The notes below the pieces were generated by a model, which was not told the DNA's origin, did no database searches, and saw nothing but the letters and a program-made list of their open reading frames with translations. Position numbers and translations under genes: made by a program. A DNA stretch of 64,000 nt from Eledone cirrhosa (Eukaryota), in assembly GCA_964016885.1 (NCBI GenBank), contig OZ024740.1, forward strand, positions 128,092,001-128,156,000, read 5' to 3'. The first letter of the stretch is position 1; the number at the start of each line of letters is the position of its first letter. Below are positions 1 through 26,900 of the stretch, in pieces.

Positions 1-238
1 CATGCTCCCTGGCGTGTGCACCATTCGTATTTGTCGATGTCCTGTCCTTGGCCCCAGTTGTCGTGGAGTATGCAGTGTCCGTCCTGTGTCATTAATGCTA
101 GTTGTGTGGCTATTTTTGTTCCTGGATACTGGTACCGGTTCATTTCTTATACCTAAGGAGGCACCCCTGCTATTGGCATTTCTGCACGCCTTATCACCTG
201 GCTCTACTCTGTCCGGGGTATATAGGATGGTGTCTTTG

Positions 239-10952: not shown

Positions 10953-10990
<38 letters not shown>

Positions 10991-10996
<6 letters not shown>

Positions 10997-11402
10997 TAAA
11001 CGGAAAAGTAAATGCTGACAAATTTTTCACAGTGAAAAATAGTTTAATTTGGAATAAGTGAGAATTAGTAATAGTATTGGTTAGTATTCAGTTTTGGTTT
11101 TAAGTTTTACCGGTTGCGCATTTCTAATGCTTTTCAAAAATAATTTTGAAATAGAGCGCCCGTGATGTTTGCTCTAATCTGATTAGAGCAAACATCACGG
11201 GCGCTCTATTTCAAAATTATTTTTGAAAAGCATTAGAAATGCGCAACCGGTAAAACTTAAAACCAAAACTGAATACTAACCAATACTATTACTAATTCTC
11301 ACTTATTCCTAATTAAACTATTTTTCACTGTGAAAAATTTGCCAGCATTTTCTTTTCCGTTTACCAATATATCATAACTTGTGTTTTACACCTCTATTCT
11401 TT

Positions 11403-11471: not shown

Positions 11472-12264
11472 AATAACAGGAGGCTGGACTGGTGTAAATC
11501 CTTGGAAGGTTTATTATACTATGATCATTTCAATGACCGGGTTCCATATGAATCCGGTGATATCATCAGGTATTGGAATATAACAGAGGAATATGTAAAA
11601 AAACTATGGGTTCGAAAAATCAGAGTCAGAGACAAAGAGGACGACTGACCAACTAGCTGCCTTCACCTCGGCCAGTCGCCCTCAAAGTGATGTCAACTGA
11701 ACCTACTAATGACTATCTGGTGAGGGGGCGAAGGCTTATAATGCACTACCCCCTCTCCATCAAAGAAAAAGGGAAAGAAAGAAAGAAAGGAAGAAAGAAG
11801 AACAAAAGGAAGTAAGAAGTCAGCGTAAGGATCACACTACATTCATGCTGGAAAACGCTGCGAAAAATGCTACTCCAAAGAATCTATATTTAACAAAGGT
11901 TATTTTATTTATAATTAACTCCGTATTCGTACCACCAACTACACAAAATAAGAGGGGTGAACTGCACTACCTTGAGTACTCTCCACAATATTACACCAAG
12001 ATTGACCATACGGAATGACCAATTCTATCCAGTCGTGAACCAACAAACCTAAAGATATATATATATATGAGCATATGAGAACATTTTCGAAGATATAATT
12101 CTATTAATAATGGTTTTGTTCCTTTTAACAATTTAATAACATATTTTTCACATATGATGGATAGCTGCACAGCTATTATCAGGACTGAGAGAAGAAGAGA
12201 AATTGAAAGGGTTAAATTATAGAGCAACAGATTTATACACAAATGACACACAATATTTATATAT

Positions 12265-12270
<6 letters not shown>
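11464..12270 (-). mobile_element. TA-embedded PLE-type insert with a hammerhead near its 3' end
   Basis: Flanked by (TA)n; hammerhead lies ~50 nt from the left TA tract. Confidence 0.6.
11516..11573 (-). ncRNA. minimal type I hammerhead ribozyme, intact core
   Basis: atac-CTGATGA-ta tcaccgg attcatatggaac ccggtca tt-GAAA-tgatcaT-A-gtat: stem I atac/gtat, palindromic stem III ATGATCAT, AUA cleavage triplet. Confidence 0.8.
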
Positions 12271-12295
<25 letters not shown>

Positions 12296-12305
<10 letters not shown>

Positions 12306-12896
12306 GAATAGCTTTCACCGTAATTTTGACTAAAGGAATGTTAGCCTGATAATGGGGTTTAGAACCCTCAGATAAATGGAAAAAAAGATGAGTATTGACG
12401 TACATGGGACTCGAACCCACATCTTTGGTTATCCAGACCACTGTGCTACCATTAAACCAACACATCACCCATCTCCTCCCATTCAAATTAGAAGCTATAT
12501 TCTTAGCGAGTATAAATGACAAGTAAGTATGTTTTGAAACAGTGAGCAGGTTTGAAATTAGAAAATAGAATAGCTTTCATCGTATTTTTGACTAAAGAAA
12601 TTTTAGACTGATAATGGGGTTTAGAACCCTAGGATAAATGGAAAAAGATGAGTATTGACGTACATGGGAGTCGAACCCACATCTTTGATTATCCAGACCA
12701 CTGTGCTCCCATTACACCAACACATCACCCATCTCGAAAGATGTGGGGTCGACTCCCATGTACGTCAATACTCATCTTTTTCCATTCATCTGAGGGTTCT
12801 AAACCCCTTTATCAGTCTAAAATTCCTTCAGTCAAAATTACGGTGAAAGCTATTCTATTTTCTAATTTCAAACCTGCACATTGTTTCAAAACATAC

Positions 12897-12900
<4 letters not shown>
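12296..12900 (-). mobile_element. TA-embedded ~260-bp tandem unit containing a tRNA-like gene, with a fold-back arm at 12737-12900
   Basis: 12296-12475 is repeated at ~12558-12735; 12737-12900 is an inverted copy. Confidence 0.85.
12396..12466 (-). tRNA. tRNA-like cloverleaf (Gln-like scaffold, anticodon position GGA, U37), probably non-decoding; second copy at 12656-12726
   Basis: Acceptor GATGTGT/GTACGTC, A box TGGT(G/T)TAATGG, anticodon arm TGGT-CTGGATA-ACCA, T arm GTGGG-TTCGAGT-CCCAT, T6-7 run ~10 nt downstream. Confidence 0.65.
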
Positions 12901-12933
<33 letters not shown>

Positions 12934-23920: not shown

Positions 23921-26900
23921 TCTTAGTCTTAGTTTTAAATTCTTCCCCACAGTTCGGCGCATCGAGCAGTTAGTACTCGCCAACGGTCACGATCAGCGGC
24001 AACTTTTTCGAGATCGTGCCAGGTGATGTTCGCTGCCATCAGGTCCTTCCGGAACGTTCGTCGCCAGGTGATTCTTGGGCAACCCCGCCTCCGTTTACCG
24101 CCAGGCGGAGTCCCAGTTCATCGCTATTTTCGAATGGCGTTCATTTGGCAGACGGAGAATACTGCCAGCCAGAGGACACCGACGCTCCGCGACCACTCTC
24201 TGTAGCATCCACGACTCGGCTCTCCGAAGGATCTCCTCGTTTCGCACTCGGTCACGCCAGGACACACGAAGGATCTTTCGCAGGCACCGCTGGTGGAATG
24301 CATTCAGCCGTCTCTCTATTGTTGCCGTACTCTTCCAGGTCTCGCTCGCATAAAGCACTCTCGGCAGCAGGATGCTCTTGTACAAGCGGAGCTTCATTTT
24401 GGTGTTAATGCATGAAGACGACCAGACTAGGCACAGCCGCTAGAAAACTGCAGCTCATTTGCCGATCCGACAGTTGATGTCGAGCTCCGCGTCGCCGCTG
24501 CCTGTCAGGATGCTGCCCAGATAGGTGAAGTGATCGACTTCTTCGAGGTCCTGTTGGTTGACTGTGATCACTGTACCTGTGTTGGTGGCTGTTCTCATTA
24601 CCTTGGTCCTTTTGGTGTTGATTCTCAGGCCGATCTTTTCAGCACTCTCTTGTAGGGATTTTGTTAGGGCCCGCAGATCTGCACTGTTTTCAGCGATCAA
24701 AGCGATGTCGTCAGCGAATGCCAGGTCCCTCAGCCTCGACTGCCCTCTCTATGGGATTCCTCGACCGGGTCCTTCATCCATTCGCCTTAGTACGAAATCG
24801 GCTGCCAGCAGGAACAATAATGGAGAGAGAATGCAACCCTGTCTGACTCTGGAGACAATGTCAAAGAACTCCATCACACCGGACTCAGTCCACACGCAGC
24901 AGCTGGAGTTTTCATACAGGGCCTTGAAAATTGTGATGAATCTTGCAGGAATGTCGTACAGTTGTGCAACATTCCACAGCGACTCCCGGTGTACACTGTG
25001 CGAATGCCTTCTGGAAATCAATAAAATTGACCGCCAAAGTCTGTTGTAGCTCAACGCATTGTTCGAGAATGTTGCGTAGTGTAAAGATCTGTTCTGTGCA
25101 AGATCGATATTTTGGAAGCCAGCGTGTTCCTCCCGGAGCACAGCCTGCCGGAGTTGACACAGCAGCACCGTGCAGAACGCCTTGCCTGGGAGTGACAGAA
25201 ATGTGATACAACACCAGTTGCTGCAGTCTGCCAGGTTTCCCTTCTTCGGCAGTTTGACGATGACACGGCGCTGCTACTCAAGGGGAACCCGACCAACACT
25301 CCAGCAGTGGTTCATCAAGTCTGTCAACGCCGTTATCGTGCTCTCCTCATCGAATTTGAGCAGCTCAGCAAATATCTCATCCAGTCCGCCTGCTTTGCCG
25401 TTCTTCAAGTCGCTAATCGCATCTCTCGTCTCTTGCTTGGTGATATGGTCCTCGCAGACTTTGAGTACCTCAGTGGTTGCTGGAGTCTCTGCGGTCAAGT
25501 CTATCAGGGCGACCGGAGTTGGTTGGTTCACCGTCTCCCGGAAGTTCTCCATCCATCTCTGCTCCTGTTCCACTCAAGTGGTCAACATCTTGCCATTTTT
25601 ATCCTTCACCGGTATGCTGGCACCGCTCGACATTCCCGTCAACTCCCTCACGATGCGGAACAGTGCTTTTGTTTCATTTCGACCTGCAGCTTCCTCTGCC
25701 TCAGCACCCTTTTTCTCCAGCCAGTCACGTTTGTCCCGCCGGCAGCTTCGCTTTACCAGTCGGTCGATTTGGCGGTATACGGCATCTCTTTTCTTTTGGT
25801 CTTCCTCCGATCTGGCAGAATCTCGCTCGACGTTTGCCTTTTTTCGTTGGTCAATCAAGTCCCATGTTGGTTCTTGGATCCATTTTTCCCCCCTCGTTCC
25901 TCGTCTTCAGCCAATAGTTTCTTGTGTTGCCTCATTCACCGCTATCGTGAACATCGTCCATTGATCTTCCAGATCTGCAGCCTCACTCAACTGCTGGAAT
26001 CGGTTGTGTAGCGCCAGTTGGTATAGTCGCGCTTGACCGGGATACTTCAGTTTCTCCACAGCATAGGGCCTGTCGTGTCCGTTTCTTCAGGCGCAGCTGA
26101 AATTCCGCACACAGTAGGTGGTGGTCTGAGCCCACGTCCGCACCTCGGTACACTCTGACGTCACGTACCGAGGACCACCTGCGCTCGTTGATGCAGATGT
26201 AGTCGATCTCGTTTCAGCTTTTCTGGTCCGGAGACTGCCAAGTAGCCTTGTGAATCGCCTTGTGTTTGAAATAGGTGTTGCTAATGCACAAGCTGTTGAT
26301 GGCACAAAACAACTGCAGTCTCTCGCCGTTGTCCGTGGTGACCGCAGCAGAACCGAATGTCCCAGTGACCTGTTCCAGTTCTTGTCTGTTGCAGCCAATC
26401 TGAGCATTGAAATCACCGATCAGTAGTTTGATGTCATGGCTGGGCAAGTTATTAAAAGTGTCCTGCAGCTGTTCGTAGAAGTCATCCTTGTCGATGTCGG
26501 TTGTGTCATGAATCAGTGCGTAGCCCTGAACAACAGTGATTTTTGCATGCCCACTTTGAAAACGGTAGGTTATGATGCGCTCGCTGACTGGCTCCCATCC
26601 GATAAATGCTCGAGTTGCTCGGGCGCTAAGCACAAGTCCACCGCCATGAATGTGCTTGTTTTAGTGTCCAGAGTAGAGTAGAGTTGTGTCTCCGCTGCCA
26701 TTCATCTTTCCGTTGCAGGTCCAGCGCATTTCTCTGACGCCCAGAATATCCAGCTGGTATTGGTCGAAATCGCGAAGTAAATGAGCCAGCTTTCCTGCCA
26801 GGTATAGTGTACGCACGTTCCAAGTTCCAATTCGTATCTTTGTTTTGGTGCTCAGAATCCGGCTCATCGGAGCCCCAACGTCCTTTCGGATTTGATTGAA

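Follow-up and report, generated by a model that had tools for sequence, protein, structure and literature searches.

A tRNA-bearing, hammerhead-free tandem element of Eledone cirrhosa with a Penelope-like insertion footprint and an A58-dependent pile-up of 5' ends

INTRODUCTION

In a 64,000-nucleotide stretch of the Eledone cirrhosa genome (contig OZ024740.1, positions 128,092,001 to 128,156,000; hereafter the window), a unit of about 260 bp that contains a tRNA-like cloverleaf occurs about 1.7 times and is followed by an inverted arm, all inside (TA)n. Partial tandems, inverted arms, a 30- to 40-bp tail and (TA)n targets are described for Penelope-like elements (PLEs) (Craig et al., PMC8557442). 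A sequence-only reading of the locus had asked whether a tRNA takes the place of the ribozyme here: RNase P/Z could cut monomers from read-through transcripts as a hammerhead does, or PLE machinery could be amplifying a Pol III small-RNA gene. We ask what moves this unit and what the tRNA does in it.

RESULTS

Architecture of the locus

The tandem and its inverted arm were present as previously read, with a spacing of 260 to 262 nt and 93% identity between units. The tRNA strand is the minus strand of the window. Positions are numbered from the first cloverleaf base (t1); in the T arm the tRNA position equals t + 2, hence A58 is t56, and the consensus position is t + 91. The left arm (441 nt, 12295..12735, minus strand) holds 1.7 units head-to-tail, its 3' end lying at PLE start site 1 (t170) next to (TA)n and its 5' end at t-8, at the inversion junction. 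The inverted right arm (12737..12899, plus strand) begins at t41 and has its 3' end at PLE start site 2 (approximately t200-203, the tail end), also adjoining (TA)n. The (TA)n target occupies 12253..12296 on the left and 12900..12933 on the right.

On the minus strand, the upstream cloverleaf copy lies at 12656..12726, with the A box in its D arm, the B box in its T arm and the anticodon GGA at 12692-12694; the downstream copy lies at 12396..12466, with its anticodon at 12432-12434. A feature absent from the earlier reading is a purine-rich leader (12467..12484) that pairs over 18 bp with a trailer (12374..12393, or 12636-12653 in the other copy) and lengthens the acceptor stem. The T run at 12380-12386, inside the trailer, is thus part of the extension helix. 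The structured 3' module (12493..12634, minus strand), a predicted PLE-recognition region, has hairpins at 12617-12629, 12590-12608 and 12494-12507 and a stem, 12577-12583/12539-12545, in which a T-A/C-G compensatory change was found; within it lie start site 1 (about 12557) and start site 2 (about 12511-12523).

A family with five subfamilies

The 260-bp unit belongs to a family of several thousand copies with five subfamilies. A search of the 3.0-Gb genome with the unit returned 2743 candidates. Exact searches gave 1073 matches for a D-arm/anticodon 23-mer, 2071 for an A/A2 motif, 3096 for a B/C motif that catches some A2 copies too and 356 for a D motif, with no match for any reversed control; each motif count refers to units or arms and is a minimum. 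Before counting, duplicate and overlapping loci were removed (10-11 from the 23-mer set, 6 and then 10 from the A/A2 set, 5 from the D set and 9 from the B/C set). The units are non-coding, in tandem and 258-290 nt long (A, 260; A2, 258; B, 271; C, 290; D, 273 nt plus a TA spacer), and their mean identity to their own consensus is 93-97% in A to C and, by eye, about 90% in D. Arrays reach 25 units; the 25-unit array (L234:1912-8830), with units 84-93% like the consensus and recurring short units, suggests satellite-like growth after insertion.

Origin and conservation of the cloverleaf

Each unit in the window contains a complete cloverleaf, as had been claimed: ARAGORN called both copies tRNA-Ser(GGA), and they scored 42.3 and 43.6 bits as tRNA in Rfam (E of about 1e-5). 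The other details of the earlier description were recovered as well, namely, a G-U-rich acceptor stem (3 of 7 pairs), a short variable loop (4 nt), the anticodon loop CTGGATA and an oligo-T terminator (a T7/T5 run approximately 10 nt past the discriminator). The D arm, described as tRNA-Gln-like, differs from that of host tRNA-Gln genes (73 motif matches) by the lack of a single T, and both have a 4-nt variable loop. Overall, the cloverleaf shared 45-49 identities with host tRNA-Gln over 75-77 columns, 36-40 with tRNA-Thr and 43-47 with the cloverleaf of an unrelated repeat; a Gln origin therefore rests on the D arm, and the comparison took in Gln, Thr, Ile and that one repeat's cloverleaf only.

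Several other tRNA-like sequences were seen in the genome. A repeat of about 1.8 kb, unrelated to the unit (L033, L035-L043; e.g., L038:1190-2960), contains an internal cloverleaf with mostly a GGC anticodon and a T run; (TA)n precedes the element, a short hairpin marks its start and a 160-bp inverted repeat lies within it, and we take it to resemble a Helentron-type non-autonomous DNA element. Clustered tRNA-Gln genes (L397-L416), 10 of them read by ARAGORN with a CTA (amber) anticodon, and tandem tRNA-Thr arrays (L032/L034) also occur, with overlapping loci inflating the counts of both.

A GGA anticodon on a short-arm scaffold had been judged not to be a normal tRNA, and the wider family agrees. 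The anticodon loop varies between lineages (GGA, CGA and GGC), another base stands in place of U33 in D and in 19 of 118 A/A2 units, and the anticodon stem carries a G-A mismatch in subfamilies A to C. With its anticodon loop drifting in this way, the cloverleaf does not decode. Stem covariation, proposed earlier as a check, was found only in its weaker form: among 21 cloverleaf pairs in the five consensuses, 15 were invariant, 3 had one-sided changes that still pair, 1 mismatch became a pair in D and the top 2 acceptor pairs were broken in C, so that pair-keeping changes were present and two-sided compensatory changes were not (0 of 21). One stem of the 3' module did change on both sides, from T-A to C-G in B and D.

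Relative to A, the cloverleaf is 87-100% identical and the remainder of the unit 64-93% (A2, B, C and D in that order: cloverleaf, 100, 100, 94 and 87%; 3' module, 93, 82, 84 and 64%), the sampling anchor accounting in part for the cloverleaf values of A2, B and C. All five consensuses retain the A box, with a 1-nt D-loop insertion in B, and the B box of D lacks A58. The 18-bp helix is kept in all subfamilies, and its length changes in D are matched. Fold z-scores (40 shuffles) were -1.4 to -2.4 for the sense strand and +1.3 to -1.8 for the antisense strand, and the cloverleaf is not the minimum-energy fold (-37.7 versus -40.1 kcal in A and -35.8 versus -44.2 kcal in D).

Search for a hammerhead or other ribozyme

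The PLE hammerheads of this genome have degenerate cores and a palindromic stem III, and the descriptor was relaxed for them. It matched the sense strand in 9 of 30 PLE loci and the antisense strand in 2, and a variant matched 35 of 57 oriented loci. On both strands of the five subfamily consensuses it found none, in agreement with the earlier remark that no convincing hammerhead was visible. An antisense near-match with one change per core motif was rejected; it has neither a stem III nor a cleavage triplet, and it corresponds to a sense hairpin read in reverse. An Rfam search of a four-unit array at E of 10 or less returned only tRNA and no ribozyme, a search that misses minimal hammerheads, since those of the window itself went undetected at the gathering score. 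A mascRNA hit was discarded at just 14.7 bits (E of 9.5).

Within the window, a perfect fold-back at 10988-11372 is the 3' end of a Neptune-type PLE family (L073, L075) and carries a degenerate hammerhead on each arm, and a fold-back/tandem element at 911-1829 has a canonical minimal hammerhead core at 1579. Elsewhere, putative PLE hammerheads (L047-L076, L163-L166 and L235-L276) often have U for C3 and A for G8, and one PLE family has GCAA instead of GAAA.

A Penelope-like footprint

The tRNA-sense 3' end adjoins a TA-type repeat in 235 of 300 arms. In A, 3' ends cluster at two sites, approximately t157-170 and t204-216; the two start sites lie 64 nt apart in C, about 52 nt in D and about 37-46 nt in both A and B, and in 46 of 53 two-arm A/A2 loci one arm used the first site and the other arm the second. 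Two-arm fold-backs made up 38 of 61 unbiased loci, the others being single-arm (17) or three-piece (6), and 31 of 65 loci in subfamily D. These features match what is described for PLE protein, which cuts and extends both strands (Frangieh et al., PMC11167929) and starts at two internal sites bounding the tail (PMC11167929). A 6-nt motif that lies immediately beyond the first start site was also noticed, by eye and post hoc, in four PLE families.

The sequence-only reading had set the element apart from a normal SINE and had counted monomeric SINE copies with LINE tails and TSDs as a refutation. The copies are tandem, permuted and folded back, with the T run right after the head and no LINE or A tail. 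A broken LINE reverse-transcriptase remnant, which we take to be RTE-like by motif, lies in the window at 24749-26011 (minus strand).

PLEs with the same TA footprint are abundant in the genome, which has 10596 GIY-YIG candidates; the 3' ends of those sampled abut TA, and going by the CxxC motif we take most of them to be Neptune-type. No significant match to the unit was found in 76 of the 150 listed GIY-YIG loci (two overlapping pairs among the 76), drawn from the 10596 candidates. One strong match, at L246, was an insertion of the element and not a partner PLE. PLE dependence is therefore argued from architecture, and the (TA)n target, fold-backs and two-site ends together support the proposed mobilization by PLE machinery.

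Copies break off at the T arm

For unbiased sampling, the anchor was placed downstream of the tRNA. Of 111 5' ends, 60 fell at consensus positions 151-160, 38 of these being at 152-153; positions 131-146 and 91-100 had none. With overlaps removed (57 loci, 103 arms), 56 ends were found in 569 arm-positions at t53-66 and 30 in the remaining 5647, or 9.8% per nt at the T arm versus 0.53%. A complete cloverleaf is lacking in 46 of the 57 unbiased A/A2 loci (about 80%) and kept in just 11, which places the window copy in a read-through minority. In its downstream cloverleaf, the family-wide stop zone (T-loop and 3' T-stem strand, t52-66) corresponds to 12401..12415 on the minus strand, with A58 at 12411 and the palindrome CATG at 12403-12406; in the upstream copy it lies at 12661-12675.

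Fold-backs are mostly joined at CATG (t61-64). The stop is nevertheless independent of inversion, since 9 of 16 single-arm loci also end in the T-arm zone. It does depend on A58: on first reaching t66, 56 of 71 A/A2 arms, 11 of 21 B arms and 14 of 27 C arms stop, all in subfamilies with A58, compared with only 7 of 81 arms in D, which has T at 58 and G at 59 with the T stem and CATG unchanged. Fisher tests of D against A/A2, B and C gave p values of 1e-19, 3e-5 and 6e-6, which are optimistic because arms of one locus are not fully independent. CATG or the T stem alone was rejected as the cause, because D retains both; for CATG, single-arm loci stop too and nine other 4-nt palindromes are little used. 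Two end groups in D were also set aside, those at t10 (a possible m1G9) as microhomology and 21 "ends" at t-42..-46 as the edge of the reference, at the internal TA spacer. Contigs of runs X1 and X2 contain the same T-arm joints, and these runs may be the source sample itself.

Nature of the stop

A methyl group on A58 (m1A58) is a known stop for reverse transcriptase (RT) (PMC8599865) and is put on precursors before processing (bioRxiv 10.64898/2026.05.17.725798). The A58 dependence, the sharp inner edge of the pile-up and junctions at tRNA positions 58-60 (L085, L210, L219, L112, L125, L518 and L525) are likely signs of this modification. Against it, D has other differences and a greater age (about 90% identity to its consensus), and the A58T change disrupts the T-loop fold as well. 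The same PLE passenger could instead carry an RNA 5' end, or a structure or protein block, at this place, A58 being needed for the T-loop fold only; a nuclease might cut the T-loop (tRF-3-like), an exonuclease might stall or an elbow-bound protein might block RT.

The fine structure of the ends bears on both explanations. Genome-wide patterns for ends at t58, t57, t56 and t55 had 373, 97, 141 and 192 matches, and in samples of 30 the cases scored as true ends numbered 7, 13, 8 and 6, respectively; by eye, three t57 "ends" and one t56 "end" were divergent read-throughs and seven more t55 cases were junctions with GAC microhomology. The stops are therefore spread over positions 57-60, some passing A58: T-loop ends there include A58 in some cases or run 1 nt beyond it, partly via the GAC microhomology. 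Most junctions resolve at CATG, 4-5 nt before the T-loop ends, so that the true stop is not read directly. A cut or block accommodates such ends, spread over positions 57-64, and A58 is not over-substituted in read-through copies (2 of 128), leaving no misincorporation trace. A cut or block also fits the far weaker stop at a second encounter with the T arm (9 of 37 and 0 of 5, versus 79% at the first) if there are two RNA classes; however, all-or-none modification of each molecule, or a circular template, would predict the drop just as well. No direct sign of a T-loop cut was seen, and the sharp edge near 58-60 coincides with a modification known to stop RT. We consider m1A58 the probable cause of the stop and a cut or structural block a somewhat unlikely one. 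As a whole, a passenger RNA whose copies end at a cut or block appears unlikely to us, and we lean slightly towards a ribozyme-less PLE passenger whose copies end at the T arm, likely through A58 methylation.

RNase P and RNase Z cutting and the template

Cutting of monomers from read-through transcripts by RNase P, RNase Z or both, in place of a hammerhead, gets no support from the insertions, in which neither site shows an accumulation of 5' ends. For RNase P, arms ending within t-5..6 numbered 0 of 17 in the unbiased A/A2 set, with 0 of 8 in B, 1 of 10 in C and 3 of 35 in D (t3..-6), and the 19 of 154 ends within t-5..6 in the tRNA-selected sets were diffuse. At the RNase Z site (t68-76), 8 ends in 741 arm-positions compare with the 56 in 569 at the T arm, and B and C had 0 of 21 and 2 of 31; a hint at t72 (3 of 53) in a full-unit-biased set was gone in the unbiased sets. 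These counts do not support the cutting claim. They do not refute it either, because the T-arm stop hides the 5' end of the main template class and an RNase P end there would be invisible.

Other observations fit such cutting: a full cloverleaf that shows pair-keeping changes, an 18-bp helix that persists in every subfamily, its length changes in D being matched, the seamless tandems and the spread of D although its B box is damaged. For ligation into a circle, the two ends of an RNase P monomer would be kept together by the leader/trailer helix, and rare variants are shared by tandem units (12%) and opposite arms (15%) far more than between loci (0.9%), which indicates a common template without giving its shape. 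Read-through copies mostly run on into the upstream unit (16 of 17; 77 of 119), so that templates are multi-unit, circular or end-jumped. However, the top two acceptor pairs are broken in C, and PLE insertion in vitro goes ahead without hammerhead cleavage (PMC11167929), so that there need be no replacement cutter. We find RNase P/Z cutting improbable, and a little less so a retrozyme in which the host tRNA pathway has replaced the ribozyme, its RNA methylated at A58, cut by RNase P and circularized by the leader/trailer helix, which we consider doubtful.

Why the tRNA is kept

The proposal that PLE machinery amplifies a Pol III small-RNA gene fits in part. PLE mobilization is suggested by the footprint, but 46 of 57 unbiased A/A2 loci are without a complete cloverleaf, and subfamily D has spread with a damaged B box. 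An internal Pol III promoter, as proposed for Sm-alpha (PMC6765202) and TRIMp3 elements (PMC10886601), is the simplest and most likely reason for keeping the tRNA. This step has evidence against it: a T5-T7 run precedes the 3' module in all five subfamilies and would need read-through, D spread with a B box lacking A58, and the read-through copies (77 of 119) mostly pass any plausible start site. The fold itself may serve stability, processing or circularization.

The tRNA could also be a functionless passenger, an old tRNA or SINE head in a degenerate PLE pLTR repeat, with host read-through transcripts spreading the unit. Its absence from most products, its lowering of full-length copying and a cloverleaf without two-sided covariation would all agree with this. 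However, the cloverleaf is less diverged than the 3' module in four of four comparisons (A2, B and C partly anchor-forced), its stems persist beside a drifting anticodon loop, and a block with such a cost would be expected to disappear; we regard a functionless tRNA as highly improbable.

DISCUSSION

Insertion into (TA)n, fold-backs, two 3' start sites divided between the arms and 5' ends that pile up where A58 is present allow the unit to be placed in a proposed PLE cycle. A PLE dimer would nick both (TA)n strands and prime two cDNAs in the 3' module. Host enzymes would methylate A58 as in a real tRNA, and the reverse transcriptase would stall there. On modified RNA, both cDNAs would stop in the T-loop and be joined to each other via CATG or to the AT of the target, giving headless arms of 100-180 nt, and only unmodified templates, whether multi-unit, circular or end-jumped, would let complete units spread. 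The tRNA would persist as an internal Pol III promoter reading through its own T run, which is the weakest step.

The element points to a SINE-like passenger class for PLEs that needs no ribozyme. It also offers a readout, from sequence only, in which RNA modification likely limits retrotransposition: in the youngest lineage, about four-fifths of the cDNAs reaching the T arm stop there, and the lineage without A58 escapes. Since the stopping point of both arms is known, the formation of fold-backs, an open point of the PLE mechanism, can be read from the junctions as the joining of two cDNAs through microhomology. The element is also short and could go directly into the in vitro PLE assay that already exists. 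If the ribozyme was indeed swapped for the tRNA pathway, modified circles would yield headless dead copies and unmodified circles tandems, and thousands of insertion junctions would be a fossil record of tRNA modification.

A hammerhead-free, tRNA-bearing PLE passenger is undescribed in the literature searched (including PMC7229834 and PMC13282606), and repeat databases or supplements may list the family. No paper on a modification stop fixed in insertion ends, or on an A58-dependent stop of this kind, was found in our search, outside which most subscription journals lie.

The closest systems differ in instructive ways. Animal non-LTR retrozymes, proposed to be non-autonomous partners of PLEs, are alike in their non-coding tandem units of 170-400 nt and structured RNA (PMC7229834; bioRxiv 10.64898/2026.07.22.740005). 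The unit described here has a tRNA cloverleaf and no type I hammerhead, and the word "tRNA" occurs nowhere in the main text of the latter report (bioRxiv 10.64898/2026.07.22.740005). Sm-alpha and Sj-alpha of Schistosoma are likewise tRNA-Gln-related, SINE-like and tandem (PMC2770079; PMC6765202), with a tRNA-Gln origin (PMC2770079) and a proposed Pol III promoter (PMC6765202) for Sm-alpha. However, a hammerhead frees Sm-alpha monomers and the element here has none, and the passages on these elements in PMC2770079 and PMC6765202 do not describe PLE-type ends or a T-loop stop. Neptune-type and Poseidon PAc PLEs and the non-autonomous Chlamys MRC1 have the same partial tandems, inverted 5'-truncated arm, tail at one end, AT-rich target and two RT start sites (PMC8557442; PMC11167929), whereas the element here has an internal tRNA and neither an ORF nor a hammerhead; MRC1-type elements share 3' ends with their partners, while here no shared sequence was detectable in the loci compared.

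The TRIMp3 elements Helenus, Ajax and Cassandra are comparable in that a small-RNA gene was captured in the repeat of a non-autonomous retroelement, where it is proposed to act as a Pol III promoter, the tRNA being non-functional (PMC10886601). They have LTRs, PBS/PPT and 4-5-bp TSDs and depend on LTR elements (PMC10886601), in contrast to the variable 5' ends, fold-backs and microsatellite flanks found here, and the structure of Helenus is reported not to support tRNA function (PMC10886601), whereas the cloverleaf stems of the present element are kept. tRNA-derived SINEs also have a tRNA head with A and B boxes and thousands of copies, and differ in having LINE or A tails; in the present element the tRNA lies mid-unit in a permuted tandem that forms fold-backs. 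Overall, the footprint suggests that the element is a variant among the non-autonomous, PLE-dependent tandem elements, one that carries a tRNA.
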